Assembly (NCBI GenBank): GCA_031460175.1
Contig: JAVKGW010000004.1
Span: forward strand, 59,303 to 123,302
Length of the DNA: 64,000 bases
Origin: Candidatus Sysuimicrobium tengchongense
Lineage (GTDB): Bacteria; Sysuimicrobiota; Sysuimicrobiia; Sysuimicrobiales; Sysuimicrobiaceae
Direction of reading: 5' to 3'
Each line of letters begins with the position of its first letter. Positions within the stretch are counted from its first letter, which is position 1. Positions 3,460-17,577 of this stretch are shown in pieces. The notes under the pieces were generated by a model, which saw only the letters and a list, made by a program, of their open reading frames with translations, had not been told where the DNA came from and made no database searches. A program made the position numbers and the translations under genes.

Positions 3460-4826
3460 CGACACCGCCGATCGTGGAGGTGGACCGGACCTGGGACGTG
3501 ATCGTGGTGGGCGGGGGCACCGCGGGGGCCATGGCGGGAATCGCGGCCGCCCGCATGAAGGCCCGCACCCTGGTGGTGGAGGCCTTCGGGTTTCTGGGCG
3601 GGACCGCCACGGGGGCCCTCGTCACCCCCATGATGCGCAACACCGCGGGCGGGGCGAACCTCAACCGGGGGCTCACGGAGGAGCTCAAGGCCCGGCTACG
3701 AGCCCGCGGAGATGCCGGGATCAGCCCCGACGGCAACGACAACTGGTTCAACCCCGAGGGGATGAAGTTCGTGCTGGAGGAGATGCTGCTCGAGGCCGGC
3801 GGGGAGGTGCTCTACCACACCCACTTCGTGCACCCGGAGGTGGAAGGGGGATGGGTGCACGGGATCCTGGTGCACAACAAGGGGGGGCTATGGCGACTGC
3901 GGGCCCGGGTGTTCGTGGATGCCACCGGGGACGCGGACCTGGCGGCGCGGGCGGGCGCGCCGTACGCAGGCGGGGATGAGGCCGGGGTCCACCAGGCGAT
4001 GACCCTCCGGTTCCACCTGGGCCACGTGGATCTATCCCGCCTCCACGACTTCCTTGTGGGGATCGGCATGCCGCAGCTGGGCCCGCGGTTCCTGCACCTG
4101 TGGATGGTGTGGGGCCGGGGCTCGCCGCTGGAACCCCTCTTCCGGCGGGCCGTGGAGGAGGGGGTGCTGCTCGAGCGGGACGGCGATTACTTCCAGGCCT
4201 TCAGCGTGCCCGGCCGGCCCGGGGAACTCTCCTTCAACTGCCCCCGCATCCGATCCGACCTCCACGACGGCACGGACCCCTGGCAGCTCTCGGCGGCCCA
4301 GGTGGACGGGCGCCGGGCCATCGAGCGGCTCGTGGCGTTTTGCCGTCGTTACCTCCCCGGCTGCGAGCACGCTTACGTGGTGATGGTGGCGCCCATGGTG
4401 GGCGTGCGGGAGACCCGGAGGATCGTGGGCGACTACGTGCTCACCCTGGAGGACATCCTCCAGTGCCGTACCTTCCCGGATGCCATCTGCCGCAACCATT
4501 ACCCCGTGGACATCCACCCGGTGCGGGGCGAGCGGCTCCGGTACGAGGACCGGGGGGAAGCTCCGTACTTCCGGCCCGAGGCCTACCATGAGATCCCGTA
4601 TCGGTGTCTGATCCCGCGGGGGCTGGAGAACGTGCTGGTGGCGGGGCGGTGCATCTCCGCCACCTTCGAGGCCCAGGCTTCCATCCGCATCCAGCAGAAC
4701 GCCCATGCCATGGGCCAGGCTGCGGGCGTGGCCGCGGCTCTCGCGGCCCTGCGGGGCGTGGGCGTGCGGGAGGTGGACGGCCGGGCGCTCCGGGAGCTTT
4801 TGCGGCAGCAGGGGGCGTACCTGTGA
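3456..4826 (+). CDS. FAD-dependent oxidoreductase (GIDA/FAD_oxidored-like Rossmann protein)
   Basis: The N-terminal dinucleotide-binding motif DVIVVGGGTAGAMAGIAAAR is present. The ATG at 3456 overlaps the permease stop (ATGA). The upstream part of ORF 2721..4826 is non-protein-like. Confidence 0.8.
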   Translation: MTTPPIVEVDRTWDVIVVGGGTAGAMAGIAAARMKARTLVVEAFGFLGGTATGALVTPMMRNTAGGANLNRGLTEELKARLRARGDAGISPDGNDNWFNPEGMKFVLEEMLLEAGGEVLYHTHFVHPEVEGGWVHGILVHNKGGLWRLRARVFVDATGDADLAARAGAPYAGGDEAGVHQAMTLRFHLGHVDLSRLHDFLVGIGMPQLGPRFLHLWMVWGRGSPLEPLFRRAVEEGVLLERDGDYFQAFSVPGRPGELSFNCPRIRSDLHDGTDPWQLSAAQVDGRRAIERLVAFCRRYLPGCEHAYVVMVAPMVGVRETRRIVGDYVLTLEDILQCRTFPDAICRNHYPVDIHPVRGERLRYEDRGEAPYFRPEAYHEIPYRCLIPRGLENVLVAGRCISATFEAQASIRIQQNAHAMGQAAGVAAALAALRGVGVREVDGRALRELLRQQGAYL

Positions 4827-6337
4827 CCGTGCTGTTCGTCCCGCCCGATACCCGGCCTCATCCCCTGGACCTTCCCCTGCAGCTGGCGCGGATCGCGGGG
4901 CTGGATGTTCGCACGCCGCCTGCTCCCTGCCTTCCCCGACTCAACGAACCCGGAGATCTCGAGGCCCTGCACGGATGGCTAATGGAGGGGGCCCAGGAGG
5001 CCACGGCAGCCGTGGTGAGCCTTGAAACCCTCACCCTGGGCGGCCTCATCCCCTCCCGGCGGGTGGAGACGCCTGTGGAGGAGGCGGTGCGGAGGCTGGA
5101 AGTGCTCGAGACGCTGCGGGCCCGGGGCGTGCGCATCTACGCGCACGCCACCATCCCCCGGGTGGCCACGGGGGACGATCCCTTCGAGGAGAGGCCGTAC
5201 TACGCGCGATTCGGCCCGCAGCTGCGGTCGTACAGCCTGTGGGCGGACCGGGCCGCGCGAGGAGACCCCGGGGCGGCACAGCGGCTAGAGGAGGTGAGAC
5301 ACGCCCTCCCTCCGGAAGTCCTCGCGGACTTCCTGGTTCTACGGGAGCGCGGCCGAAGGATCCACCTGGAGGCCCTGGAGCTCGTGCGGCGGGGGGTTCT
5401 CAAGCGGCTGCACCTCACCCTGGACGACACCGCGCCCGAGGGCCTTTCCGTGATGGACCGCCGGTTCCTCTCCGAGCGCGTCCGAGCCCTCGGCCTCCAG
5501 GACCGCGTGCGGATCTACCCGGGCGCAGACGAGGTTCCGTGCACCCTCCTTGCCCGGTTGCTGCTGGATGAAGTCGCCCGCAGGCCGCGGGTCCGGGTGA
5601 TCTCCCCCGTGGCAGACCTTGAGCGGATTCCCACCCGGTACGAGGACGAACCCCTGGGAAGATTGCTGCGCGGTCACCTGGAGGCCGCGGGCCTCCGGGA
5701 GGCCGGGCCGGGGGAGGAAGCGGATCTCGTGGTGGCCCTGAACGCGCCGGGCCGGGCCCAGGGCGAGGCCGCGCATCAGCCAGATCCCGGGTGGGTGGAC
5801 ACCCCGGAGCGGGACCTGGGAGCCTTTGTGGACCGCATCGGGGAAGCCGTGCGCGCCGGCTTACCGGTGGCGGTCCTGGACGTGGCCTACGCGAACGGCG
5901 CGGACGACCGGTTCGTGCGCCTCCTGTTGGACCGGGTGGACCCCACCCGGCTTGCGGCCTACGCGGGGTGGAACACCGCGGGAAACACCCTCGGAAGTGG
6001 CCTTGGACTCGGGGTGGCGACCCTGCTCGGGACGAATCCCCTGCCCCGACTGGAGGCGCTCCTCGTGCGGCTCGCGGAGGACTGGCTCTATCAGGCCCGG
6101 GTGCGGCAGGAGGCGGACCGGGCCCTGGAACACCCCGACCCTTACGACCTCGGGCCCCTCTGGCCCCGTGCCCAGGAGGAAGTGCGTGGACGCCTCGTTC
6201 CCCGCATCGAGGCCCTGTGGCGGGAGCACTTCGCCCCGAGGCTTCCTTCTGTCGCCCTCCGCCTGGAGCCGCCGGAGCTCAGTTGGCCTCGGCTGCACGG
6301 CGTCCGGGTCCGGCTGCGGATCGTGCCCGGAGGGTGA
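4823..6337 (+). CDS. Conserved hypothetical protein, about 500 aa (possibly DUF4127 family; recalled, not verified)
   Basis: The GTG at 4823 overlaps the oxidoreductase stop (GTGA). The protein-like translation starts VTVLFVPPDTRPHPLD... The upstream part of ORF 4604..6337 is low-complexity. Confidence 0.6.
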   Translation: MTVLFVPPDTRPHPLDLPLQLARIAGLDVRTPPAPCLPRLNEPGDLEALHGWLMEGAQEATAAVVSLETLTLGGLIPSRRVETPVEEAVRRLEVLETLRARGVRIYAHATIPRVATGDDPFEERPYYARFGPQLRSYSLWADRAARGDPGAAQRLEEVRHALPPEVLADFLVLRERGRRIHLEALELVRRGVLKRLHLTLDDTAPEGLSVMDRRFLSERVRALGLQDRVRIYPGADEVPCTLLARLLLDEVARRPRVRVISPVADLERIPTRYEDEPLGRLLRGHLEAAGLREAGPGEEADLVVALNAPGRAQGEAAHQPDPGWVDTPERDLGAFVDRIGEAVRAGLPVAVLDVAYANGADDRFVRLLLDRVDPTRLAAYAGWNTAGNTLGSGLGLGVATLLGTNPLPRLEALLVRLAEDWLYQARVRQEADRALEHPDPYDLGPLWPRAQEEVRGRLVPRIEALWREHFAPRLPSVALRLEPPELSWPRLHGVRVRLRIVPGG

Positions 6338-6340
6338 GCC

Positions 6341-7216
6341 GTGAGCTCGGTGATCCTGGCCCTGGACATCGGCGGCACCAAGATCGCCGCGGCCCGGGTG
6401 GTGGAAGGGGTTGTGCTGGAGCGGCGGGAGGTCCCCACCCCCGCTCGGGAAGGGCCCCAAGCGGTGATCCGCACCGCCCTGAGCCTCCTCGAGGACTGGA
6501 GGCGGGGGGCCGTGGGGCTCGGGGTGGCGAGCGGAGGGGTCGTCCACCGGGGTCGGGTGGTCCACGCGAACCCCCGCGTCCTGCCCGACTGGGAAGGGTT
6601 GGACCTGAGGGCGGTGTTCCGGGCAACCACGGGGCTACCGGTGGAGGTTTTGAACGACGCCCAGGCCGCGGCCTGGGGGGAGTACCGATACGGCGCGGGC
6701 CGGGGTCTTGAATCCCTGGCCTTCGTCACCGTCTCCACGGGGATCGGCGCGGGGCTGGTGCTCGGAGGCCGGCTCCTCTTGGGTACCGCGGGGCTCGCGG
6801 GCCACCTGGGGCACACGGTCTGCGAGCCGGAGGGGGAAGCGTGCGGGTGCGGCCGGAGGGGGTGCCTGGAGACCGTGGCCTCCGGGATGGCCCTCGCGGA
6901 GGCCGCCCGCCGGCGGTTCGGAGTCCCCCTCGACGCCCGGACGGTGTTGGAGCGGGCTCAGCACGGGAATCCGGAAGCTTGCGCGCTCGTGGACCGTGCG
7001 GCCGAAGCCCTCGCGCAGGCCCTGGGAGATCTCCAGGCCCTCGTGGACCCCCAGGCCGTGGTGCTGGGAGGAGGCGTGGGTCTCAACCCCTATTACCGGG
7101 GGCGCCTGGAGGCCGCCCTCTCCCGCCTTCCCGGTCCCTTCCGCCCCCGCTTGCTCCCCTCCGCCCTGGGACCGGACGCGGGCCTGCTGGGGGTGGCGGA
7201 CCGGGTAGGACTTTGA
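6341..7216 (+). CDS. ROK family sugar kinase (probable N-acetylmannosamine/N-acetylglucosamine kinase)
   Basis: The translation shows LALDIGGTKIAAA, the Zn motif CEPEGEACGCGRRGCLE, and a length of 291 aa as in NanK. It sits 3 nt after the upstream gene. Confidence 0.8.
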   Translation: MSSVILALDIGGTKIAAARVVEGVVLERREVPTPAREGPQAVIRTALSLLEDWRRGAVGLGVASGGVVHRGRVVHANPRVLPDWEGLDLRAVFRATTGLPVEVLNDAQAAAWGEYRYGAGRGLESLAFVTVSTGIGAGLVLGGRLLLGTAGLAGHLGHTVCEPEGEACGCGRRGCLETVASGMALAEAARRRFGVPLDARTVLERAQHGNPEACALVDRAAEALAQALGDLQALVDPQAVVLGGGVGLNPYYRGRLEAALSRLPGPFRPRLLPSALGPDAGLLGVADRVGL

Positions 7217-7553
7217 GGCCGCAATCCCCTAACTCGTTACAACGCGGTCAGGAGGAGGGCTACGGATGGCGGTCCGAATCGACCTGCCCCACATACCCGG
7301 ACCGTGCAGGCCTACCGTCTGGGCCGTGAGGCGGAAGTCCACCACGCCCCCGAGCGGGTGGGCCTGGACCCGGAACTCCCCGGGTTCGAGCTGGAGCCCG
7401 GGCCCGTGTTCGAGGACTGAAAAGGCGAAGCACCCTGAAGGGAGTCTGCTTCTCGGCATCGTGGTCTCCTTAGGCCGGCTCCAGAACCCCTCCATGACCT
7501 CGTCCAGCTCCGCGATACCTCGCCGCGACTGGTAGCGGTACAATCGTCCTGCG

Positions 7554-8327
7554 ATGCCGTTCACCGTGGAGGACTTCCAGGATCTCCTCCGGCTGCTGGA
7601 ACAACAGCCCCACTGGAAGAGTGCCCTGAGGGCGGCTCTGCTGGGCGAGGAGTTCCTGCAGCTCCCCGTCCTGGTCCGGGACCTGGTGGAAGCCCAGCGG
7701 CGCACCGAAGAGGAGTTGCGGCGGCTCGCGGACGCCCAGCGACGCACGGAGGAGCGGCTGGAGCGTCTGGAGCAGGCGGTGGCTCAGCTCGCGGAAGCCC
7801 AGCGGCGCACGGAGGAGCGACTGGAGCGCCTGGAGCAGGTGGTGGCTCAGCTCGCGGAAGCCCAGCGACGCACGGAGGAGACCGTGCGAACCCTTGTTCG
7901 GGAGGTCGGGGCGCTCAAGGGCGAGACTCTGGAGCGCCGCTACCGGGAGAGGGCTGCGAGCTACTTCCAGCGGATCCTCCGTCGCATCCGGGTGGTGGAT
8001 CACCAGCAGCTGGGACTGCTCCTGGACGATGCGCTGGACGCCGGCCACATCAGCCCGGAGGAGCGGGCGGACGTGCTGGAAGCGGACGTGGTGGCGGTGG
8101 GGCTTCGAGACGGCGAGGAGGTGTACCTCCTGGCGGAGGTCTCCGGTACGGTGACCGCCCATGACGTCCGACGTGCCCGGCGCAGGGCCGAGGTCCTGCA
8201 GCGGGCCGTGGGAAGGCCGGTCTTGAGCGCGGTCGCCGGAGAAGTCCTCTCCGACGATCCGGAGACGCTGGCAGAGGCCATGCAGGTGTGGCGCGTCCTG
8301 GACGGTCGGGCCGACCCCCCGGTTTAA
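7554..8327 (+). CDS. Hypothetical coiled-coil protein with tandem 21-aa repeats and a C-terminal restriction-endonuclease-like (Uma2/DUF820-like?) region
   Basis: The translation contains the repeats AQRRTEERLERLEQ[A/V]VAQLAE, then a C-terminal block ...EADVVAVGLRDGEEVYLLAEVSGTVTAHD... A TACAAT box lies 9 nt upstream of the ATG. Confidence 0.6.
   Translation: MPFTVEDFQDLLRLLEQQPHWKSALRAALLGEEFLQLPVLVRDLVEAQRRTEEELRRLADAQRRTEERLERLEQAVAQLAEAQRRTEERLERLEQVVAQLAEAQRRTEETVRTLVREVGALKGETLERRYRERAASYFQRILRRIRVVDHQQLGLLLDDALDAGHISPEERADVLEADVVAVGLRDGEEVYLLAEVSGTVTAHDVRRARRRAEVLQRAVGRPVLSAVAGEVLSDDPETLAEAMQVWRVLDGRADPPV
7691..7885 (+). repeat. In-frame 63-bp tandem repeat, about 3 copies (gcccagcgRcgcacggaggagcgRctggagcgYctggagcaggYggtggctcagctcgcggaa)
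   Basis: Near-identical 63-nt units appear at about 7733-7795 and 7796-7858, with diverged or partial copies on either side. They encode the 21-aa coiled-coil repeat. Confidence 0.8.
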
Positions 8328-8352
8328 GAGCGCCCCACAAACGCGGAGCCTG

Positions 8353-8372
8353 GGGTCCCCTTTGGGGGACCC
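8353..8372 (+). terminator. GC-rich hairpin (GGGTCCCC-TTTG-GGGGACCC) 26 nt after the 7554..8327 stop; possible terminator without a clear U-tract
   Basis: The sequence shows a perfect 8-bp inverted repeat. Confidence 0.3.
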
Positions 8373-8616
8373 GCCCAGTACCAGGGATGTTGGCTGGCTC
8401 TGAGCGGTTTTGTCAGGCGCTCCAGGTGTCGGATGCGCGAACCGGGAGGCTCAGCGCAGGGCCGATGCGGTCGGGCCATTCCAGCTCAAGCGCCCGCATC
8501 CCGGCCCGTAGCGCTTCCCGCAGCCGGGCCCGGCTGCGCGTAGATCCTCGCGATGGCGGATCTGATCCGACAGAGATCCTGGAGGGATTTGCGGGCGCAG
8601 GCTTCTCAGGCCGGAA

Positions 8617-8691
8617 TGGAGCCGGCGGCGGGATTCGAACCCGCAACCTGCGGATTACAAATCCGCGGCTCTTCCCTTGAGCTACGCCGGC
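8617..8691 (-). tRNA. tRNA-Thr (anticodon UGU), CCA encoded
   Basis: The reverse complement is GCCGGCGTAGCTCAAGGGAAGAGCCGCGGATTTGTAATCCGCAGGTTGCGGGTTCGAATCCCGCCGCCGGCTCCA. It folds as a cloverleaf with anticodon loop TTTGTAA. Confidence 0.85.
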
Positions 8692-8810
8692 CCCGTTCCG
8701 AAGTGTAGCACGAGTACAAGGGACCTGGATTCCAGGAATACGTGCGCTTTACAGGCCGCGTCCTCCACGGGTATGGTGTGGGGGAAGATGCAGGGGAGGA
8801 GGAGCATCCC

Positions 8811-9503
8811 ATGTGGAAGACCCTTCGGCATCTGGTACTCGCCGCGGAACCCCGGGGAGATGCGGACGCGGTCCACAGACTCGTGAAGGCAGCCACTGAG
8901 GGAGGGGTGGACGCCATCGCGATGGTCGGGGACCTCACCGGTCCGAACCCCACCGCGGAGACCCTTGCATCCCTCTTCAAGATCCTGGGATCCGCCAACC
9001 TGCCCACCTATCACGTCCCGGGGCCGGACGACGCGCCCATCGTGGACTACCTGCGGGAAGCCTACAACGTCGAGCTCGTCTACCCGTTCATGCACAGTGT
9101 GCACGGCACCTTCTCCATCGGCCCCGGACACGTGGTGTTCGCAGGGATGGGCGGGGAGATCATAGACGAGGCGACCCGCACCCGGGAGGAAGTCACCCGC
9201 CTGCGCTACGAGGCGTGGGAGGTGGAGTACCGCTTGAAGGTGCTGCAGGAGCTGAAGGACTCCCTCAAGGTTTTCCTGTTCACCACCCCGCCCGCGCACC
9301 GAGGTTTGGGGGAAGCGGGAAGCCAGGAGCTCGCCCAGCTCGTGAAGACCTATAACCCGCAGCTCGTGGTGGTGCGCACCCCGGAGTTGCGCACGGAGAC
9401 CCTGGGCGCCTCCCTCGTGGTGAGTCCAGGATTCCTCATCCAGGGATCGGCGGCTCTGTTTGACTTCCGGGAGCGTCGCGTGGAGCGTTTCTCCCTGTCG
9501 TAG
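8811..9503 (+). CDS. Hypothetical protein, possibly a metallophosphoesterase-like (YfcE/MJ0936-type) fold
   Basis: This takes the internal ATG (MWKTLRHLVLAAEP...) of ORF 8742..9503. The translation contains a VGDLTG motif. Start coordinate is ±1: the ORF-track frame implies ATG at 8811-8813 but it reads at 8812-8814 in the displayed sequence, consistent with an extra g near 8760. Confidence 0.5.
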   Translation: MWKTLRHLVLAAEPRGDADAVHRLVKAATEGGVDAIAMVGDLTGPNPTAETLASLFKILGSANLPTYHVPGPDDAPIVDYLREAYNVELVYPFMHSVHGTFSIGPGHVVFAGMGGEIIDEATRTREEVTRLRYEAWEVEYRLKVLQELKDSLKVFLFTTPPAHRGLGEAGSQELAQLVKTYNPQLVVVRTPELRTETLGASLVVSPGFLIQGSAALFDFRERRVERFSLS

Positions 9504-9526
9504 CCCTACACGGGTTCCTCTCCCGC

Positions 9527-11017
9527 TCAGTCCACGGCGGTGAGGACCGCCCACGCCAGATCGGGTTCCAGGTGCTCCTCCCGGTCGTCGATGCGCACCC
9601 GGATGCCCCCCTCGCGTACCTCCAGCACCTCGAGGCGGATTCCCGGAAGGACCCCCTTCTCGGATAGACGACGCAGAACCTCCGGATCCTCGTCCTCCAC
9701 CTCGAGGACGTCCACCACCTCCCCCTCCTGCCGTTCCATCAGCCGCCGGACCGGTTCGAAGGGTTCCCGGACATCTCTCGGAATGCGGGCACCGTGGGGA
9801 TCTCGAACCGGACGACCCAGGGCCTCGTCCAGCTCTGCCGCGAGCTCCCGGGGAGCTAGGTGCTCCAGGCGCTCCGCCTCCGCGTGCACGTCGGTCCACG
9901 GCACGCCCCCGCGGTCCACCAGGTACCGCTCCCACAGGCGGTGGGAGCGCACCAGGGCCACCGCCTGCTCCCGGCCCCGGGAGGTGAGCCGGACCCCACC
10001 GTCCCGCAGTTCCACCAGCCCCTCCTGCGCCGCCCGCCGGGCAAGGGCGAGCACCGCGGAGGGCGCAAGGCCGAGTCGCCGGGCCAGGAGGTCCACGGAG
10101 GCTCCTCCCCCGCGGTCCGCGAGGTAGGCCTGCTTCAACAGGTCCTCCCGCGCCACCCGCCGGGCGGCCTGACGTCGCCGCACCGCGTCCCACAGGACCC
10201 CCTCCCGCGGCCCCAGGAGCACGGCCAGGAGGAAGAGGACGGTGGCCACGAGCACCATGGTGGGGCCGGAAGCCACGTTCAGGTGGTAGGAGAGGTACAG
10301 GCCGCTCAGGCCGGAGACCACCCCCACCCCGACCGCCAGGGGGATCATGCGGGACATGCGGTCCGCCAGGAGGTAGGCGGTCGCCCCCGGTGTGATCAGC
10401 ATGGCCACCACCAGCACGATCCCCACCGCCTGCAGGGACGCCACGATGGTGACGGACAGCAGAAGCATGAGGGTGTAGTGGAGGGCTGCCACCGGGACCC
10501 CCATGGCGCTCGCCGCGGTGGGATCGAACGTCCACAGTACGAGCTCCTTGTAGAAGAGCGCCACCACCCCGAGCACCAGGACACCGGTTGCCGCGGTGAG
10601 CAGGAGGTCGACATCCGAGACGCCGAGCACGTTTCCGAACAGGATGTGGAAAAGGTCAATGGCGCGGCTGCGGATGCGGCTGATGAGCACAAAGCCCAGG
10701 GCGAAGGCTCCGGTAAACAGGATCCCCATGGCGGAGTCTTCCTTGATGCGGGTGTGCCGCTCCACCGCGGAGATCCCGAGCGCCGTCGCCATGCCCGTGA
10801 TCACCGCTCCCAGGAAGAAGGGAAGGTTCAGGAGGTATGCGAAGGCCACGCCAGGCAGCACCGCGTGGGAGACGGCATCCCCCAGCAGGGCCCACCGCTT
10901 CACCAGCAGAAAGCAGCTCAAAACCGCGCAGATCCCGCCCACCATCACCGCGGCCAGGAGGGCTCGCTGCATGAACGCGTACTGCATGGGGGCCACGAAG
11001 ATCTCGTGAAGGATCAT
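9527..11017 (-). CDS. Metal (Mn/Zn/Fe) ABC transporter permease fused to a C-terminal DtxR/MntR-like repressor (HTH + metal-binding + FeoA domains)
   Basis: The N-terminal ~290 aa are a typical ABC-3 permease (MQYAFMQRALLAA...LLGDAVSHAVLPGVA). The C-terminal ~200 aa read ...VDLLARRLGLAPSAVLALARRAAQEGLVELRDGGVRLTSRGREQAVALVRSHRLWERYLVDRGGVPWTDVHAEAERLEH...DPHGARIP... plus an SH3-like FeoA block. Confidence 0.8.
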   Translation of the reverse strand: MILHEIFVAPMQYAFMQRALLAAVMVGGICAVLSCFLLVKRWALLGDAVSHAVLPGVAFAYLLNLPFFLGAVITGMATALGISAVERHTRIKEDSAMGILFTGAFALGFVLISRIRSRAIDLFHILFGNVLGVSDVDLLLTAATGVLVLGVVALFYKELVLWTFDPTAASAMGVPVAALHYTLMLLLSVTIVASLQAVGIVLVVAMLITPGATAYLLADRMSRMIPLAVGVGVVSGLSGLYLSYHLNVASGPTMVLVATVLFLLAVLLGPREGVLWDAVRRRQAARRVAREDLLKQAYLADRGGGASVDLLARRLGLAPSAVLALARRAAQEGLVELRDGGVRLTSRGREQAVALVRSHRLWERYLVDRGGVPWTDVHAEAERLEHLAPRELAAELDEALGRPVRDPHGARIPRDVREPFEPVRRLMERQEGEVVDVLEVEDEDPEVLRRLSEKGVLPGIRLEVLEVREGGIRVRIDDREEHLEPDLAWAVLTAVD

Positions 11018-11772
11018 GGCGCCTCCCCCCCTCTCTGATGTGCGGCCTCCAGCAGGGTGAGACGGCCGCCGTAGGTGCGTTGCAGGAGCTCGGGAGTGAA
11101 GACCCGCTCGGGCGGCCCGTAGGCCACCAGCACCTGGTTGAGGAGCAGGAGGCGATCGAAGGCGGTCTGCGCCCGGCTGAGGTCGTGGGTGGCCACCACC
11201 ACCGTTCGTCCCTCCTGCTGCAGTCGGCGCAGCAGGACATAGATGGTTTCCTCCGTGGCCGCGTCCACTCCCACGAAGGGTTCGTCCAAAAGCAGCACCC
11301 GGGCCTCCTGGGCCAGGGCACGGGCGAGGAAGACCCGTTGCTGCTGGCCGCCCGAGAGCTGCCCGATCTGGCGATCCGCGAATCCCTCCATCCCCACCTG
11401 GCGCAGGGCCTCCCGGGCGATCCTCCGGTCCTCCGGTCCGGGCCGGCGGACCAAGCCCAGGTGGACGAACCGCCCCATGAGGACCACCTCCTCCACCACG
11501 ATGGGGTAGTCCCAGTCCACCTCACTGCGCTGGGGCACGTACGCCACGAGGCGTCGGGTCTGCGAGATGGGTTGGCCGAAGATCCGCACCGCCCCCGTGT
11601 CCGGCACGACCAGCCCCACCAGGGCCTTGAGGAGCGTGGACTTCCCGGCTCCGTTGGGGCCCACGAGGCCCACGAGGAGACCCGGCTCGATCTGGAACGA
11701 CACGTGGCGGACGGCGGGTTGCTCCCGGTAGGAGACCGTAAGGTTGCGAACCTCGATGGCCGGTCTGCTCAT
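11014..11772 (-). CDS. Metal ABC transporter ATP-binding protein (MntA/ZnuC-like)
   Basis: The Walker A motif GPNGAGKST, the LSGGQQQR signature and Walker B LLLDEP are present. There is a 4-nt overlap with the downstream permease. Confidence 0.85.
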   Translation of the reverse strand: MSRPAIEVRNLTVSYREQPAVRHVSFQIEPGLLVGLVGPNGAGKSTLLKALVGLVVPDTGAVRIFGQPISQTRRLVAYVPQRSEVDWDYPIVVEEVVLMGRFVHLGLVRRPGPEDRRIAREALRQVGMEGFADRQIGQLSGGQQQRVFLARALAQEARVLLLDEPFVGVDAATEETIYVLLRRLQQEGRTVVVATHDLSRAQTAFDRLLLLNQVLVAYGPPERVFTPELLQRTYGGRLTLLEAAHQRGGEAP

Positions 11773-12662
11773 CGCAGCGCCTCCACGATCGTCTTCACGT
11801 TGTGGCGCATCATCCCGATGTAGGTGTCCGCCCCCCTCCCCGCAGGTCCCAAGGAGTCCCCGTAGAGCTTGCCGCCGATGCGCACCCCGGCCTCCCGGGC
11901 CACCCGCTCCATGAGCTTGGGGTTGATGGTGGTCTCCACGAAGACCGCGGGAACCCGCTCCCGCCGGATGCGGTCTACGAGGCGCGCGATCTCCTGGGCC
12001 GAGGGCTCATCCTCCGTGCTGATCCCCCAGATGGTCCCCACCACCTGGAAACCGTAGCGATGCCCGAAGTACCGGAAGGCGTCGTGGGTGGTCACGAGTT
12101 TCCGGCGCGCGGGCGGGATCTGCTGGATCTGCTCCCGGATCCAGCGGTGCAGGCGTTCCAGCTCCTGGAGATACCGACGGGCGTTTGCCTCGTACTCCGC
12201 ACGGCCCGCGGGATCAAAGGCCACCAGGGCATCCCGGATGTTCCGGACGTACACCTGTGCGAACACGGGATCCATCCAGAGGTGCGGGTCGGGATCGCCC
12301 CGGTACGGGCCGGTCTCCTGGACGGCGGGCTGCAGGCCCCGGGTGGCCTCCACCAGGACGAACCTTCCGCCCGCGTTCTCCAGCAGCTTCTCCAGCCACT
12401 TCTCCAGCTTGAGGCCGTTGTAGACCACCACCTGCGCCTCCGCGATCCGCTGCACGTCCCGGGGAACGGGCTCGTAGGTGTGGGGGTCGGCGCCCACGGG
12501 GAGAAGGCTGCTGACCTCCAGGCGGTCTCCGGCCACCTGCCGCGTGAGGTCCGCGAGGATGTTGATGGTGGCGACCACGCGGGGTCTGCCCGATGCCGGA
12601 TCCGCCGCGGGCGCCGCGCAGGCGGCCAGGAGGATGGCGAGGAGGGGAAGGAACCGCCTCAC
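11769..12662 (-). CDS. Metal ABC transporter substrate-binding protein (TroA/ZnuA/MntC family)
   Basis: The GTG start at 12662 gives VRRFLPLLAILLAACAAPAA (a lipoprotein-like signal). The rest of ORF 11769..13250 upstream is low-complexity artefact. Confidence 0.85.
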   Translation of the reverse strand: MRRFLPLLAILLAACAAPAADPASGRPRVVATINILADLTRQVAGDRLEVSSLLPVGADPHTYEPVPRDVQRIAEAQVVVYNGLKLEKWLEKLLENAGGRFVLVEATRGLQPAVQETGPYRGDPDPHLWMDPVFAQVYVRNIRDALVAFDPAGRAEYEANARRYLQELERLHRWIREQIQQIPPARRKLVTTHDAFRYFGHRYGFQVVGTIWGISTEDEPSAQEIARLVDRIRRERVPAVFVETTINPKLMERVAREAGVRIGGKLYGDSLGPAGRGADTYIGMMRHNVKTIVEALR

Positions 12663-13312
12663 GGCACAGCCTCCACGAAGACGCTCTCCGCCACCCGCTG
12701 CCCGAGCCGCACCACGGACCCAGAGGGGAGCTGAACCTCCACCCGACCATCCGGGCGCCGTCCCAGAACCCGGGCCCGCCTGCCGGGAAGCAAGCCCAGA
12801 CCCGAGAGCTTCCGCAAGGTGCGGGCGTCGCTGTCCCGTACCCGGACCACGCACACGGGGCCCTCGAGGATCTCGCTGAGGCGGGGGAAGCGTCGTTCCC
12901 GCAGCTCCCCCTCGCGACTGGGGATGGGATCCCCGTGCGGATCCACCGCGGGGTCGCCCAGGGAGGCCGCGATGTGCTCCTCCAGGAGCTCGGAGAGCAC
13001 GTGCTCCAGCCGCTCCGCCTCCCCGTGCACCGCCTCCACGGGGAGGCCCAGACGGTCCGCCAGGTATCGCTCCACGAGCCGATGGTGCCGGATCACCTCC
13101 AGGGCTGCCCGTTCCCCCTTCGGGGTGAGCCGGACCCCGCGATACGGGGTGTGGGTGACGAGGCCCCGGGCGCTCAGGCGCTTGAGCATCTTGGTGACGG
13201 ATGCCGGGGCCACCTTCATGCGCCGGGCGATGGCGTTGGTGCTCACCCACCCGCTCTGCCCCAGCTTGTAGATGGCCTTCAGGTAGTCCTGGACGGCGGC
13301 GGTGGTGGCCAT
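12659..13312 (-). CDS. DtxR-family metal-dependent transcriptional repressor (MntR/SirR-like, with C-terminal FeoA domain)
   Basis: The HTH reads AIARRMKVAPASVTKMLKRLSARGLV and the metal-site blocks RHHRLVERYLADRLGL...EAERLEHVLS are present. It overlaps the binding-protein gene start by 4 nt. Confidence 0.85.
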   Translation of the reverse strand: MATTAAVQDYLKAIYKLGQSGWVSTNAIARRMKVAPASVTKMLKRLSARGLVTHTPYRGVRLTPKGERAALEVIRHHRLVERYLADRLGLPVEAVHGEAERLEHVLSELLEEHIAASLGDPAVDPHGDPIPSREGELRERRFPRLSEILEGPVCVVRVRDSDARTLRKLSGLGLLPGRRARVLGRRPDGRVEVQLPSGSVVRLGQRVAESVFVEAVP

Positions 13313-13323
13313 GGATCCTCCGG

Positions 13324-13343
13324 AATTTAGCTTATGCTAAATT
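13324..13343. promoter_or_regulatory. Candidate DtxR/MntR operator: inverted repeat AATTTAGC-TTAT-GCTAAATT
   Basis: There are 8-bp perfect arms with a 4-nt spacer. The site lies between the -10 box and the start codon of the repressor-led operon. Confidence 0.5.
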
Positions 13344-13356
13344 CGCCCAGGCTAAA

Positions 13357-13384
13357 ATTATAGCACACGTCACCCACCCCCCAA
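13357..13384 (-). promoter_or_regulatory. Promoter of the mntR-like operon: -35 TTGGGG, 16-nt spacer, -10 TATAAT (minus-strand sense)
   Basis: The reverse complement of 13357-13362 is TATAAT and that of 13379-13384 is TTGGGG. This is an AT-rich island within a GC-rich genome. Confidence 0.45.
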
Positions 13385-13396
13385 GGACAGCCAGGA

Positions 13397-14356
13397 CTAC
13401 GGGGAACCGGAGTCCTCCCCGGGCCCGGGGTCGCCCCGCGAGGGGACGGGCGTGCAGCGGGGGCAGGTGGGGCCGCACGGCTCCACGTGGATGGTGATGT
13501 CCGTACCGGGCAGTTCCTCCCGGATGTCCTCCTCCAGGTGATCGCAGAGGGCGTGGGCTTCCCCCACGGAGAGGGTTCGGTGGAGGACGAGGTGGAGGTC
13601 GAGGAAGCGTTGGGGCCCTACTCTGCGGGTCCGCAGGGCGTGGTAGTCGAGGATCTCGTCCCGGTGTGCCTCGAGGATGGCCCGGATCCTGGCCTCCTCC
13701 GGCTCCGGAAGCGACCGGTCCATGAGGCCGCCGAGGGCTTCCCGGTACACCCGCACGCCCATTGCCACGATGTTCAGGCCCACGGTCCCGCCCACCACAG
13801 GATCCAGCCACACCACGCCCGTGAGCCAGACCAAGCCCACGCCTCCCAGGGCCGCGAGGGAGGTCAGGACGTCCGCCAGCAGGTGCCGGGCATCCGCCTC
13901 CAGGGCCAGGGACTCCACCTCGCGGGAGACGCGCAGGAGGAACCGGGCGGTCAGGTAGTTCGCGAGGGTCGCGATGGCCACCAGGCTGAGCCCCCAGTCC
14001 AGGGCCTGGAGGGGCACGGGACGCAGGAGGCGTCTGAAGGCGGTGATCACCACCCATGCCCCGGTCACGGCCACGAGGGCCCCTTCCGTGGCCCCGCTGA
14101 TGTACTCCGCCTTCCCGTGGCCGTACGGGTGCCCCGCGTCCGGAGGCCTTGCGGCCACGGCCAAAGCCACCAGGGCGATGTTCGCCGCCACCACGTTCAC
14201 CACGGACTCCGCGGCATCCGAGAGAAAGGCCACGGACCCCGTGAGGAGGTAGGCGGCGGCCTTCAGCCCCAGGATCCCCACGCTCACGCTCACGGAAACG
14301 AGGGCGGCCCGCAGCGGCGTCGCCCGGTGGCCCGGGCTGGATGGAGGAGGCAACAT
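13397..14356 (-). CDS. Cation diffusion facilitator (CDF) family divalent metal efflux transporter
   Basis: The translation has six TM segments and a C-terminal cytoplasmic domain, and resembles CzcD/MntE-type proteins (...DAAESVVNVVA...HPYGHGKAE...). Confidence 0.85.
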   Translation of the reverse strand: MLPPPSSPGHRATPLRAALVSVSVSVGILGLKAAAYLLTGSVAFLSDAAESVVNVVAANIALVALAVAARPPDAGHPYGHGKAEYISGATEGALVAVTGAWVVITAFRRLLRPVPLQALDWGLSLVAIATLANYLTARFLLRVSREVESLALEADARHLLADVLTSLAALGGVGLVWLTGVVWLDPVVGGTVGLNIVAMGVRVYREALGGLMDRSLPEPEEARIRAILEAHRDEILDYHALRTRRVGPQRFLDLHLVLHRTLSVGEAHALCDHLEEDIREELPGTDITIHVEPCGPTCPRCTPVPSRGDPGPGEDSGSP

Positions 14357-14419
14357 CGTCCTATGCCAGGGGGCGCGTGCGGTCCGGACTCCTCCGGGCG
14401 CCAGGGGAAAAAGCCCGTG

Positions 14420-15475
14420 CTACAGCCACACCAGCCCCGCAATTCGGCGCCAGCGGCGGTCCAGCCGCCACAGCCCGGCCTCCCGGGCGTAGCGGTAGGC
14501 CTGCTCCAGCTCCTCCGGGAAGATGCGGCGGTTGATGTCCCGGTACTTCGGGTCCGTCTTCGCCTTCCACGCAGGATGGTACTGGTCCATGACGTTCACG
14601 TAGGTGTCCCGAGACAGCCGCCCCAGCCAGCGCAGGATTTCCCGGGTGTCCTCCAGCATGCCCGGCATCACCAGGTGCCGCACCAGCAGACCCCGCAGGG
14701 CGATCCCGTCCTCGTCCACCGTGAGGTCCCCCACCTGGGCGTGCATGGCGGCGATCACCTGCCGGGCCACCTCCGGGTAGTCGGGAGCAAGGAGGTAGCG
14801 CCGGGCCCGCTCCCGGTCCCACAGCTTGAAATCGGGCATGTAGATGTCCACCACCCCGTCCATGAGCCGGATGGAGTGGAGACTGTCGTAGGCGCTGGTG
14901 TTGTATACGATGGGGAGTCGCAACCCCTTCTCGATGGCGTACGGAAGGGCCTCGAGGATCTGCGGCACCACGTGCTCGGGGGTCACGAGGTTGATGTTGT
15001 GGCAGCCCAGCTCCTGCAGCCGCAGCATCATGGCCGCCAGTTCCTGAGGCGTCACATCCACCCCTTCCCCGATCTGGCTGGTCTCGAAGTTCTGACAGAA
15101 GACGCATCTCAGGTTGCACCACGAGAAAAAGATGGTCCCGCTTCCCCGCCAGCCCCGCAGCACGTCCTCCTCCCCGAAGTGGGGGAAGAAGGCGGAGACC
15201 CGGGCGTATCGGCCCACCCGGCACACCGCGAACCGGTTCTCCAGGCGGTTCGTGTGGCAGTTCCGGGGGCAGAGCGTGCAGTCGCGCAGGGCCTCCAGGG
15301 CCTCCTCCACCTTCTCCCGCAACCGCCCTTCCTCGTAGGTCCGCAGGTAGGCGGGGGTGAACTCCCGGCGCACGAACCGGCCGTCTCCGTGGACCTCCCG
15401 GGGAATCCCACGCTGTGCGAGCAGCACGTCAACCCCTCCCCTCGCATTCTCCGCGGATCTGAACCCCCGGGGCAA
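14420..15475 (-). CDS. Radical SAM protein, PflX-like (homolog of pyruvate formate-lyase activating enzymes, COG1313-type)
   Basis: The translation shows a CNLRCVFC (CxxxCxxC) cluster motif, GGE-like residues and a length of about 350 aa. Confidence 0.75.
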   Translation of the reverse strand: MPRGFRSAENARGGVDVLLAQRGIPREVHGDGRFVRREFTPAYLRTYEEGRLREKVEEALEALRDCTLCPRNCHTNRLENRFAVCRVGRYARVSAFFPHFGEEDVLRGWRGSGTIFFSWCNLRCVFCQNFETSQIGEGVDVTPQELAAMMLRLQELGCHNINLVTPEHVVPQILEALPYAIEKGLRLPIVYNTSAYDSLHSIRLMDGVVDIYMPDFKLWDRERARRYLLAPDYPEVARQVIAAMHAQVGDLTVDEDGIALRGLLVRHLVMPGMLEDTREILRWLGRLSRDTYVNVMDQYHPAWKAKTDPKYRDINRRIFPEELEQAYRYAREAGLWRLDRRWRRIAGLVWL

Positions 15476-15490
15476 GACGGCTCGATAGGT

Positions 15491-16624
15491 TCAGGGCCTC
15501 AGGGGATCCACGGGGCGCCCCCTGAACCGGACCTCGAAGTGGAGGTGCGGACCGGTGGTGTAGCCCGTACTGCCCACCCGTCCCAGCAGGGCGCCGGCGG
15601 GGACCCGCTGGCCCGGGGAGACCAGGATGGCGGAGAGATGCCCGTAGAGGGTGCTCACCCCTCCCCCGTGGTCCACGAGCACGATCTTCCCATACCCCCC
15701 GAACCACCCTGTGTAGATCACCGTACCCGGGGATGCGGCGCGGACCGGGCTCCCCCAGGGAGCCGCGATGTCCACGCCCGTATGCATCCTGCGGATCCGG
15801 AAGAGGGGATGCAGGCGGACCCCGAAACCGGAGACCACCGGACCCCGGGCCGGCCAGACGAGCCCGGCCCGGATGCGTAGGCTGATCCGCGTGGGCGCAG
15901 CACTCCCCTGCAACCGGCGGATCAGGGCCTCCAGGCGTCGGGAGTCCTCCTCCAGCTCCTCCACCGCCCGCTCGTACAGGGCACGCTCCCTGGAGATGCG
16001 ATCGAGGAGCATGCGCTTGTCCCGCTCGTGCTCCCGGAGGGCTCGGTCCCGGGCCGCCAGGGCCTGCGCGAGGGCCTCCATCTCCCGTCGCCGTGCCCCG
16101 AGCTCTGCCCGGAGCTCCCGCCACGCCCCGTACTCCCGGCGTGTCCGGTCGAGGAGTGCTGTATCCGCCCGCACGATGCGGCTCAGGAACCGGAAGCGGT
16201 TGAGGAACTCCGGAAAGGTGCGGGCTCCCAGGAGCACATCCACGTACCCCGCACGGCCGGCCCGGTAGATGTCCCGGAGCCGCCTTGCAAGCCGCGCCCT
16301 GCTCTGTCGGAGACGGACCTCCGCGGCGATCAAGCGCTCCTGCGTGCGGCGCTCCTCCGCGCGGACCCTTTGGAGCCGGGCCGCCAATCTCTCCCGCTCC
16401 CGCTCCAGAGCTTCCCGGGTGCGCTCGATGCGCTCCAGTTCCGCGAGGACCCGGCGCTCGCGGGCCCTGGTGGCCACCAGGGCCCGCCGCTTTTGGGAGA
16501 GGGCCTCCCGGAGCTCCTGCAGCTTCCGGTCCACGCTCACCGGAAGCCCCAGGGCCGGGGAGGCTAGAAGCACGCCCAGGAGGAGGCCAAGAACTCCCCG
16601 GAACCCGCCCTGCACCGGTCTCAC
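15491..16624 (-). CDS. M23 family peptidase with N-terminal coiled coil (EnvC-like murein hydrolase activator)
   Basis: The C-terminal M23 motifs HTGVDIAAPWGSPV...VDHGGGVSTLYGHL are present. The GTG start at 16624 overlaps the ftsX stop (GTGA). The upstream part of ORF 15491..16999 is artefactual. Confidence 0.8.
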   Translation of the reverse strand: MRPVQGGFRGVLGLLLGVLLASPALGLPVSVDRKLQELREALSQKRRALVATRARERRVLAELERIERTREALERERERLAARLQRVRAEERRTQERLIAAEVRLRQSRARLARRLRDIYRAGRAGYVDVLLGARTFPEFLNRFRFLSRIVRADTALLDRTRREYGAWRELRAELGARRREMEALAQALAARDRALREHERDKRMLLDRISRERALYERAVEELEEDSRRLEALIRRLQGSAAPTRISLRIRAGLVWPARGPVVSGFGVRLHPLFRIRRMHTGVDIAAPWGSPVRAASPGTVIYTGWFGGYGKIVLVDHGGGVSTLYGHLSAILVSPGQRVPAGALLGRVGSTGYTTGPHLHFEVRFRGRPVDPLRP

Positions 16625-17577
16625 GTCCGCGGAAGCCTCAGGGTGCTGACCGCGCTTGCCCCTCCCGCGATCCCGACCCCGCCTGCCAGGAGCACCGCGG
16701 CCAGGAGGGGGATCGCATCCCTCGGGGGAACCACGGGCCAGATGGGCCAGGAGGCCGTGAGCATCCGCACCCCAAGGACGTACCCCACCCCCAACACCCC
16801 CAGGGCCAGCAACGCGGCCACCCCGCCGTGGAGGATTCCCTCCACGAGGAAGGGAGCCCGGATGAAGCCCTCCGTGGCGCCCACCAGCCGCATGATCTCG
16901 ATCTCCGGCCGCCGGGCGTGGATGGCGAGGCGCAGGGTGTTCATGATCACCACCACGGCCACCACCCCCAATACCGCGGTAGCCCCTCCCCCTGCCCACC
17001 GCACCAGGCGGGATGCCGCCAGCACCCGGTCCACCACGTCCCCGCCGTGGACCACCTCCTCGACCCCGGGGACGGATCGGAGGGCCCGGACGATCCGTGG
17101 GAGATCCCCGGGTCTAGATGGGTACACCTCGAGGGTGTCCGGGAGCGGGTTGGTCCGCACCAGGTCCCGCAGATCCACCCCCAGGGATTCCTGGAGCCGG
17201 CGCAGGGCCTCCTCCCTCGTGACGAAGACGACCCGATGGCCCACGCGTTCCGCAGCCTCCACCGCCTTCCGGACCTCTCCGGGGCTCAGCCCCTCCCGGA
17301 GGTAGGCCACCGCCACCAGCTGTCCCTCCACGTGGGCGGCCAGAAGCCGGAGATTGAGGAGCACCAGGAACGAGCTCCCCAGAGCGAGGAGGGCGGCCAT
17401 GAGGGTGGTCATGGAGGCCACGCTCATGGCCGCGTGCCGCCGGACCCCCTGCCATCCGGCCTCCAGGGCGTAACCCGCGGTGGCGAGGACCGCAGCCGCC
17501 CGTTGCCGGAACCCCGGGGACACGGGCTCCTCGACGACACCGATCCACGGGGGCTCACGGACGCCCGAGGTATTCAC
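16621..17577 (-). CDS. ftsX: Cell division ABC transporter permease FtsX
   Basis: The translation has four TM segments and a periplasmic loop. It directly follows ftsE. Confidence 0.85.
   Translation of the reverse strand: MNTSGVREPPWIGVVEEPVSPGFRQRAAAVLATAGYALEAGWQGVRRHAAMSVASMTTLMAALLALGSSFLVLLNLRLLAAHVEGQLVAVAYLREGLSPGEVRKAVEAAERVGHRVVFVTREEALRRLQESLGVDLRDLVRTNPLPDTLEVYPSRPGDLPRIVRALRSVPGVEEVVHGGDVVDRVLAASRLVRWAGGGATAVLGVVAVVVIMNTLRLAIHARRPEIEIMRLVGATEGFIRAPFLVEGILHGGVAALLALGVLGVGYVLGVRMLTASWPIWPVVPPRDAIPLLAAVLLAGGVGIAGGASAVSTLRLPRT

Follow-up and report, generated by a model that had tools for sequence, protein, structure and literature searches.

A permease fused to a DtxR/MntR-like module beside a canonical DtxR-family paralogue in a metal importer operon of Candidatus Sysuimicrobium tengchongense

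The window analysed here is a 64,000-nucleotide stretch of Candidatus Sysuimicrobium tengchongense (assembly GCA_031460175.1, contig JAVKGW010000004.1, positions 59,303 to 123,302). It contains a four-gene operon on the minus strand, in the order dtxR, substrate-binding protein (SBP) gene, ATPase gene and a permease gene whose C-terminal part is a DtxR/MntR-like module (permease::DtxR). The operon encodes a cluster A-I metal ATP-binding cassette (ABC) importer of the PsaABC/MntABC/TroABCD type, made up of a ZnuA-family SBP, an ATPase and an ABC-3 permease. An earlier sequence-only reading had recognized the translational coupling of the four genes as well as the joining of a permease and a DtxR-like repressor in one gene, and both observations were confirmed. 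The dtxR stop codon overlaps the GTG start of the SBP gene (GTGA), ATGA overlaps join the SBP gene to the ATPase gene and the latter to the permease gene, and the last gene is a single frame of 496 residues without a stop. The same reading had suggested sub-functionalisation of the two DtxR-type proteins, and comparison of their sequence conservation indicates that they are clearly diverged in role. The stand-alone protein is the canonical paralogue and likely the operator-binding repressor, judging from its sequence. The fused module is most likely a built-in metal sensor and not an operator-binding repressor, because its metal sites and dimerisation domain are kept while most of its DNA-contact residues are lost.

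The fused gene and its operon

In Pfam searches, the fused protein matched ABC-3 at residues 12-267 (PF00950, E 5e-86), Fe_dep_repr_C at residues 345-414 (PF02742, E 1e-23) and FeoA at residues 425-491 (PF04023, E 7e-10). Residues 288-491 also aligned to the NCBIfam Thermus-type MntR model (E 1e-35, below the curated cutoff). The C-terminal SH3-like/FeoA domain typical of the DtxR/MntR family is present in the module, and the conserved blocks pointed out earlier, RSHRLWERYLVD, EAERLEH and DPHG, were all found in the protein. The AlphaFold2 model, built with 45 homologues, has a mean predicted local distance difference test score (pLDDT) of 85.4. Foldseek matched its N-terminal half to the Mn permease PsaC (7kyp; TMt 0.89, root mean square deviation 2.6 Å, 41% identity) and its C-terminal half to a full-length Mn-dependent DtxR-family repressor (5zr6; TMt 0.88, root mean square deviation 2.1 Å, 215 columns). 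The helix-turn-helix that had been assigned to the module is present as a fold, as the superposition on 5zr6 indicates, but not as a profile match: the Pfam search of the module gave no PF01325 match at E<=0.01 and only weak MarR_2 and HTH_24 matches. Positions of the features are given in Table 1.

Table 1. Positions in the window of the importer genes, the domains of the fused protein and the promoter-region elements
Feature	Position	Strand	Basis or remark
Stand-alone DtxR/MntR (DR2539-like), 217 residues	12659..13312	-	PF01325, PF02742 and FeoA matches; likely operator-binding repressor
Cluster A-I metal-binding lipoprotein (ZnuA family), GTG start, 297 residues	11769..12662	-	Pfam ZnuA, E 2e-98
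ABC ATPase (MntA/PsaB-like), 252 residues	11014..11772	-	Pfam ABC_tran; ATGA overlaps at both ends
Whole fused gene, ABC-3 permease::DtxR/MntR-like module	9527..11017	-	496 residues plus stop; uninterrupted open reading frame, Pfam
Permease domain, residues 1-273; nine transmembrane helices, N-terminus outside, C-terminus cytoplasmic	10199..11017	-	PsaC match (Foldseek), AlphaFold2 helices, loop charges
Continuous helix, residues 274-300; Arg-rich permease tail into DtxR α1 with ligand D292	10118..10198	-	AlphaFold2, alignment
Winged-helix domain, residues 301-345; fold kept, DNA-reading residues diverged	9983..10117	-	No PF01325 match; DNA-contact mapping
Dimerisation/metal-binding domain, residues 346-414 (H359, E363, H378, E382, E385, H386, D406, H408, W362)	9776..9982	-	PF02742
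FeoA/SH3-like ancillary domain, residues 425-496	9530..9745	-	PF04023; β-rich in the AlphaFold2 model
Candidate operator, perfect palindrome with 9-nt arms, GAATTTAGC-ATAA-GCTAAATTC	13323..13344	.	Candidate site, by sequence
Second, imperfect operator-like site, TTTAGCCTGGGCGAA (on the minus strand), overlapping the first	13342..13356	.	One mismatch to TTAGC-N4-GCTAA; inverted repeat
Candidate extended -10 box, TGCTATAAT, immediately upstream of the operator sites	13357..13365	-	By eye
Ribosome-binding site GGAGGA, downstream of the operator sites and followed by the dtxR ATG	13316-13321	-	

Each PsaC protomer has nine transmembrane (TM) helices; an extracellular gate helix follows TM4, coupling helices lie in the cytoplasm, and the dimer contacts are TM2, TM4, TM7 and TM9 (PMC8346216). 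The model of the fused protein has TM helices at residues 14-39, 43-62, 67-88, 93-115, 135-154, 176-198, 200-217, 221-246 and 250-268. TM9 is followed by a five-residue turn with the invariant P270 and G273 and then by a single predicted helix of residues 274-300 (block pLDDT 83-90). This helix is composed of an RRRQAARR tail and the DtxR α1 helix that bears the metal ligand D292, and residues 267-300 include eight Lys or Arg residues. The PsaC-like nine TM helices with cytoplasmic coupling helices and the Arg-rich segment past the last of them place the DtxR part in the cytoplasm, as the sequence-only reading had assumed.

Conservation was assessed in a set of 109 full-length fusions and the query (110 sequences). 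In these, the segment from TM9 to α1 aligned with zero gaps, P270, G273 and D292 being invariant or nearly so. Unfused relatives likewise continue for 10 to 40 residues past the last TM helix (matches reach query residues 281-314). In the model, the DtxR-like module is joined end-to-end to the permease's own C-terminal helix on the cytoplasmic side with essentially no linker; the zero gaps in the 110 fusions and the single predicted helix argue that there is no linker to spare. The junction is thus a fixed-length predicted helix without a flexible linker, which neither proves nor excludes cleavage. A single ABC-3 permease gene was found both in the operon and in the whole window; the permease is therefore expected to form a homodimer, with two DtxR-like modules per transporter.

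Two diverged paralogues, their families and the operator

DR2539, the Mn2+ sensor of Deinococcus radiodurans (8PVT/8PVZ/8PW0), served for comparison. In the DR2539-DNA structure, 14 residues contact DNA (Ser6, Ser8, Tyr12, Ser26, Thr27, Gln28, Ala37, Pro38, Ser40, Thr42, Arg46, Lys47, His56 and Tyr59); the primary metal site is formed by Asp11, Glu102, Glu105 and His106, and the ancillary site by His79, Glu83, His98, Asp126, His128 and Asp130 (10.1101/2024.02.12.579695). The two window paralogues share 43% identity. The stand-alone gene had been described as the diverged paralogue, and the reverse was found: its score against DR2539 (8pvt) is 172.6 bits, versus 77.6 bits for the fused module, and it reaches 68 bits on PF01325. 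The stand-alone protein shares with DR2539 the three domains, all 10 metal ligands, a TTTAG-N6-CTAAA operator and a close reading head (VAPASVTKMLKRL, HTPYRGV), in which 13 of the 14 DNA contacts are identical (nine) or conservative (four).

The fused module has the DR2539 fold in common and is attached to a permease. It keeps four DNA contacts as identical residues (S307, A318, P319 and R327) and one as a conservative replacement (R328), so that 9 of the 14 are replaced. Leu stands for Tyr12, Val for Thr27, Asp for Gln28, Leu for Thr42 and Leu for His56, and the wing is one residue shorter, at the Pro58 position, which puts Asp339 opposite Tyr59. Acidic residues, D309 and D339, thus occupy two contact positions. 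The metal site claimed for the module is confirmed for all primary ligands and for all ancillary ligands but one, A410 standing in place of Asp130; the nine ligands kept are D292, H359, E363, H378, E382, E385, H386, D406 and H408. The idea that the two paralogues sense different metals was considered and is unsupported here, both having the Mn-type primary site of Asp, Glu, Glu and His.

The same pattern was seen across the family when the 110 fusions were compared with 120 stand-alone homologues and the window stand-alone protein (121 sequences). D292, H359, E363, E385, H386, D406 and H408 are present in at least 109 of the 110 fusions and H378 in 105, and position 382 is variable (E in 47, H in 39 and D in 21). 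W362, in the HRLWERYL block (codon 9932..9934), occurs in every fusion, whereas only 4 of the 121 stand-alone proteins have Trp there and 117 have Leu, Val or Ile. Mean pairwise identity in the recognition helix is 0.26 among fusions and 0.58 among stand-alone proteins; the corresponding values are 0.38 and 0.72 for the wing and 0.58 and 0.71 for the dimerisation/metal-binding domain. Because the fusion set is more divergent overall, sequence pairs were binned by dimerisation-domain identity. In the bin of 0.55-0.65, identity of helix plus wing is 0.30 in fusions versus 0.58 in stand-alone proteins, while that of the SH3 domain is about equal (0.33 and 0.38). The DNA-reading head therefore evolves about two times faster across fusions than in their stand-alone relatives.

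Within the winged helix of the fusions, the hydrophobic core positions are conserved and the exposed DNA-facing positions are variable; position 308, the counterpart of DR2539 Thr27, has a hydrophobic residue in 75% of fusions versus 2% of stand-alone proteins. With a hidden Markov model of the stand-alone winged helix, fusions scored a median of 22 bits (range 8-47), the training stand-alone proteins 85-122 bits, and more distant stand-alone or unfused DtxR-type open reading frames (ORFs) in the loci that we fetched 38-88 bits. Among the matches listed, about 10 of 120 fusions have a recorded PF01325 domain, versus 120 of 120 stand-alone proteins. The fused reading surface appears to lack the constraint seen in true repressors of the family, though the operator type is conserved (see below). 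This pattern is one of relaxed constraint as read from the alignments, which does not equal loss of function. Metal site and junction geometry, in contrast to the DNA-reading surface, are under strong constraint across the family. In a neighbour-joining tree, no fused domain lies within the clade of the 121 stand-alone sequences, and its own neighbour (0.40 identity) is not nearer to the fused module than other stand-alone proteins are. For these reasons we rejected the idea that the neighbouring dtxR was recently duplicated in tandem onto the permease.

A palindrome upstream of dtxR had been placed at 13324..13343. It is real and extends over the interval given in Table 1. The 64-kb window contains it only once, and 100 shuffles gave 0 matches; no further operator copy was found within the window. 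The crystallised DR2539 operator, ATTTTAGTCGCGCCTAAAAT, has the same TTTAG/CTAAA half-sites with the same 6-bp spacing, which suggests that the operator belongs with the stand-alone protein. The palindrome fits the stand-alone protein and not obviously the fused domain. A consensus promoter scan gave no full -35/-10 pair at the operon, so the -10 box is one picked by eye, and at Rfam gathering thresholds positions 6000-17000 contain no Mn riboswitch or other RNA element, only a tRNA.

For context, loci of homologues were fetched (L001-L083), and counts of context come from this similarity-ranked sample. The box TTAGC-N4-GCTAA also precedes related operons that are unfused and have a divergent mntR (L040, L061, L067 and L069) and occurs in the fusion operons L001 and L007, and with one mismatch it stands just upstream of orphan fused genes (L013, L032, L071 and L076). 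The operator type is conserved across several phyla.

It is very probable that the importer, probably one for Mn2+, is shut off at transcription by the metal-loaded, DR2539-like stand-alone repressor at the palindrome. The top NCBIfam model for the ATPase is that of the Deinococcus Mn ABC ATPase MntA, below cutoff. The top PDB matches of the SBP are MntA, PsaA, YfeA and MntC. The third ligand position of the SBP is His, as in TroA (TTHDAF), versus Glu in the Mn-specific PsaA/MntA (TSEGAF); its metal site is thus TroA-like, His-His-His-Asp, and the regulators have Mn-type Asp/Glu ligands. Because of this TroA-like His, the transported metal may still be Fe2+ or Zn2+. The ATPase showed no extra domain in the Pfam search, and the extra domain of the importer sits on the permease.

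The sequence-only reading had regarded a repressor fused to a permease as unusual. The homologue search, made against about 5.8 billion proteins (NCBI, JGI, ENA and Logan assemblies; figures refer to the matches listed), shows otherwise. Homologues in many phyla carry the same fusion in more than 100 clusters from independent assemblies, down to 46% identity among the matches listed, nearly all of the top matches having this architecture. In JGI they already bear the name 'ABC-type Mn2+/Zn2+ transport system permease subunit/Mn-dependent DtxR family transcriptional regulator'. The closest named sources among these matches (89-95%) are Armatimonadota metagenome-assembled genomes (MAGs), and other sources are labelled Bacillota/Thermaerobacter, Methylomirabilales, Gemmatimonadota, Bipolaricaulota and Woesearchaeota. 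In a second scan, for which each GTDB species was represented by one genome, the fusion turned up in Saprospiraceae including the cultured Flavilitoribacter nigricans, Lewinella cohaerens and Portibacter marinus, in Symbiobacterium thermophilum, and in MAGs of Thermaerobacter, Ignavibacteria, Planctomycetota, Euzebyaceae and Acidimicrobiales.

A canonical stand-alone DtxR is encoded in the locus of the fusion in the window and in L002, L003, L007, L008, L034, L055, L081 and L082, and loci with both genes include Armatimonadota, Ignavibacteria, Euzebyaceae, Saprospiraceae and Planctomycetota records. No stand-alone DtxR was found within 6 kb of the fusion in L001, L004, L053, L060 and L083.

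Chlamydia has the same architecture: YtgC (CT069/CTL0325), a product of ytgABCD, consists of an ABC-3 permease and, at its C-terminus, a DtxR/TroR-like domain, YtgR, whose functional part is the C-terminal 139 residues (PMC5599777, PMC7755916, PMC6504234). Its authors also noted orthologous permease-repressor fusions in 11 bacterial phyla (PMC5599777). The window gene is a genuine member of this widespread YtgC/YtgR-type family, its architecture is not new, and as it stands it is an ordinary instance of a described one. The Chlamydia fusion was reportedly described in 2011-2012. We found no study in the literature of a permease::DtxR fusion outside Chlamydia, and the literature found treats the Chlamydia fusion as a peculiarity of an obligate intracellular pathogen. 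Here the fusion lies beside a canonical repressor in a free-living, uncultured lineage, an Armatimonadota relative. Two features may be useful, the canonical paralogue in the same operon and the family-wide divergence of the fused DNA-reading head. In combination they suggest that the fused module may be a metal gauge carried by the transporter and not a repressor.

YtgC-YtgR and the window gene have in common an N-terminal ABC-3 (TroC-like) permease and a DtxR/TroR-like domain in one ORF of a cluster A-I importer operon, and the metal-coordinating residues are conserved (by comparison with the published description of CT069). They differ in several respects. Chlamydia has a second, unfused permease, YtgD, with which YtgC forms a heterodimer, whereas the window has one permease gene; YtgR comprises 139 residues without an SH3/FeoA domain, whereas the window module comprises about 213 residues with FeoA; and Chlamydia has no other DtxR, whereas the window operon is headed by a canonical paralogue. 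Cleavage and DNA binding were shown for YtgR, and the reading head of the window module is diverged. Of the other known systems, Treponema TroABCD-TroR and streptococcal PsaBCA/PsaR, MtsABC/MtsR and SloABC/SloR have a transporter of the same family under a DtxR-family Mn/Fe/Zn repressor, whose gene often lies in or beside the operon. Their repressor, however, is a separate protein; the fold of the window permease equals that of PsaC.

Possible roles of the fused module

We propose that metal-loaded stand-alone MntR would bind TTTAG-N6-CTAAA just downstream of the -10 box and shut all four genes, and that a second control would lie in the transporter. The nine-TM permease runs via the fixed-length basic helix into α1 of the cytoplasmic three-domain DtxR/MntR-like module, and metal at D292/E382/E385/H386 would fix α1 against the dimerisation domain. 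Since α1 is continuous with TM9, which is at the dimer interface in PsaC, metal binding would throttle import, the metal loading being passed mechanically via α1 and TM9 to the gate or to ATPase closure. This would result in fast post-translational feedback on top of transcriptional repression. The reading as a whole, in which repression of the operon falls to the stand-alone protein while the fused module serves as a metal sensor built into the transporter on its cytoplasmic side, is held tentatively, its chance being just short of even. That the module acts as a metal sensor on the transporter in cis is likewise tentative, with a chance somewhat below even.

In the trans-inhibited importers MetNI and ModBC, a cytoplasmic ligand-binding domain senses the imported substrate and slows transport. 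The likeness to the window is in concept only, as their domain is on the C-terminus of the ATPase and is unrelated to DtxR, whereas that of the window is on the permease. ABC-3 importers are not known to be regulated in this way. It is conceivable, though we have more doubt than confidence, that outside Chlamydia most permease::DtxR fusions, this one included, are not repressors and that a former repressor has been re-used as an in-cis Mn2+ gauge. With the same degree of doubt, such a gauge may be the first substrate-sensing regulatory domain on the membrane subunit of an ABC-3 importer, with an α1 switch wired by a rigid helix to the TM9 interface and a paralogue that keeps DNA binding. If direct control of the transporter is true, it would add a new post-translational feedback layer to bacterial manganese homeostasis and would call for caution in annotating permease::DtxR fusions as transcription factors.

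Several points weigh against a sensor, and most of them favour a repressor that is released from the permease. YtgC, the sole member studied experimentally, is cleaved from 49 kDa to 28-30 kDa by a protease not yet identified in the papers concerned, and its C-terminal 139 residues are an Fe-dependent repressor of its own promoter, as supported by Fe-dependent DNA binding, reporter repression and chromatin immunoprecipitation (PMC5599777, PMC7755916, PMC6504234). By this YtgR precedent, the fused module would be a repressor. Its winged-helix fold is retained and basic, with a recognition-helix net charge of about +3, and it keeps A318 and P319, the Ala-Pro pair that gives DR2539 its thymine specificity, as well as R327 and R328. 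The fusions in L001, L013, L032 and L071 have no stand-alone DtxR within 6 kb and yet have an MntR-type box upstream. To our knowledge, no ABC-3 or type II importer has a regulatory domain on its permease.

In such a release, the module would be cut off, dimerise, bind Mn2+/Fe2+ and repress the operon or other genes, beside the stand-alone protein or redundantly with it, and its intact metal ligands and dimerisation domain would allow this. This is the main rival of the sensor reading, though we consider it rather unlikely. The operator type is conserved across phyla, yet within the fused module conservation is lowest in the recognition helix and the wing. Of the 14 DNA contacts, 9 are lost, and two contact positions bear acidic residues. 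In several phyla the operon already encodes a canonical repressor. A flexible linker is lacking at the junction, which is predicted to be a helix of fixed length, and the Chlamydia system differs in its heterodimeric YtgC/YtgD permease, in having no SH3 domain and in having no other DtxR. If the window protein is cleaved as in Chlamydia, the operon, with its single operator and its pair of paralogous regulators, would lend itself well to studying why.

Compared with the sensor reading, it is improbable that the fused module pairs with stand-alone MntR and titrates the repressor at the membrane according to the abundance or state of the transporter, as with other regulators that transport proteins hold. 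The dimerisation domains are very similar (RSHRLWERYL... and RHHRLVERYL..., within 43% identity overall), and both genes lie in one operon in several phyla. However, many fusion loci have no stand-alone partner nearby, and fused and stand-alone domains fall into cleanly separate clades. W362 is invariant in fusions and replaced by Leu, Val or Ile in stand-alone proteins, a pattern that suggests a fusion-specific contact, not a shared interface.

It had also been suggested that the uncleaved, membrane-tethered protein binds DNA and brings the operator to the membrane, and this is very improbable. Full-length YtgC also repressed in Escherichia coli, and membrane-anchored LacI was noted as workable (PMC5599777). 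In DR2539, however, the N-terminal end of α1 (Ser6, Ser8 and Tyr12) contacts DNA, and here it leads into TM9, so that the uncleaved protein could not dock canonically on DNA and the membrane would occlude its DNA face. The reading head is, in addition, diverged, with most DNA contacts gone. The earlier interpretation is thus supported in part: the real fusion, the cytoplasmic DtxR part, the ligands and the diverged roles stand, while its novelty and the operator at the membrane do not.

A frameshift or assembly error joining a permease to a downstream troR-like gene, of which the unfused order exists in a Spirochaetaceae MAG (L026), is effectively ruled out by the continuous frame, by a junction free of gaps in 110 independent sequences (NCBI, JGI, ENA, Logan and cultured isolates), by the separate clade of the fused domains with its signature W362, and by the keeping of the fusion in more than 100 independent clusters.

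Variants of the locus and neighbouring genes

Among the fetched loci, the arrangement around the fusion varies. In Saprospiraceae/Bacteroidota, orphan fusions have no SBP or ATPase gene within about 6 kb (L006, L010, L012-L025, L027, L031-L033, L036, L039 and L076). A Planctomycetota MAG (L080) has tandem permease genes at 4460-5857 and 5809-7488, both with a DtxR-like module. The heterodimer that this implies would have two sensor domains, whereas in Chlamydia YtgC is the only fused subunit. The unfused permease-then-troR order of L026, with a canonical reading head, is a plausible ancestral state. In an Ignavibacteriales MAG (L002), a second DtxR-like ORF at 1017-2093, beside the canonical stand-alone DtxR, has a dimerisation domain and two FeoA/SH3 repeats and no detectable winged helix. 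In some loci of Bacteroidia, SBP and ATPase matches lie in one stop-free frame (L028 4259-6001, L035 2-1024 and L037 4156-5991), which may be two genes sharing a frame and not a true fusion.

Within the fused gene of the window, an in-frame TTG codon at L294, 5 nt past GGAGG (10136..10151, minus strand), was considered as the start of a free DtxR. This is unlikely, as the product would lose the ligand D292, and the arrangement is a by-product of conserved Arg-Glu-Asp codons.

Metal efflux and metal uptake genes adjoin in the window. A cation diffusion facilitator efflux gene (Cation_efflux and ZT_dimer; 13397..14356, minus strand) shares the strand of the uptake operon and ends 84 bp upstream of it, and a hairpin with 10-nt arms (13393-13416) spans its stop codon. 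On the other side, a gene for a calcineurin-like metallophosphoesterase (8742..9503, plus strand) converges on the fused gene with a 23-bp gap. Further on, a 257-residue ORF (7554..8327, plus strand) without a significant Pfam match contains tandem repeats of about 22 residues (AEAQRRTEERLERLEQxVAQL) that are coiled-coil-like by prediction. Between this repeat ORF and the metallophosphoesterase gene lies a tRNA gene (8620..8691, minus strand; Rfam 70.6 bits).

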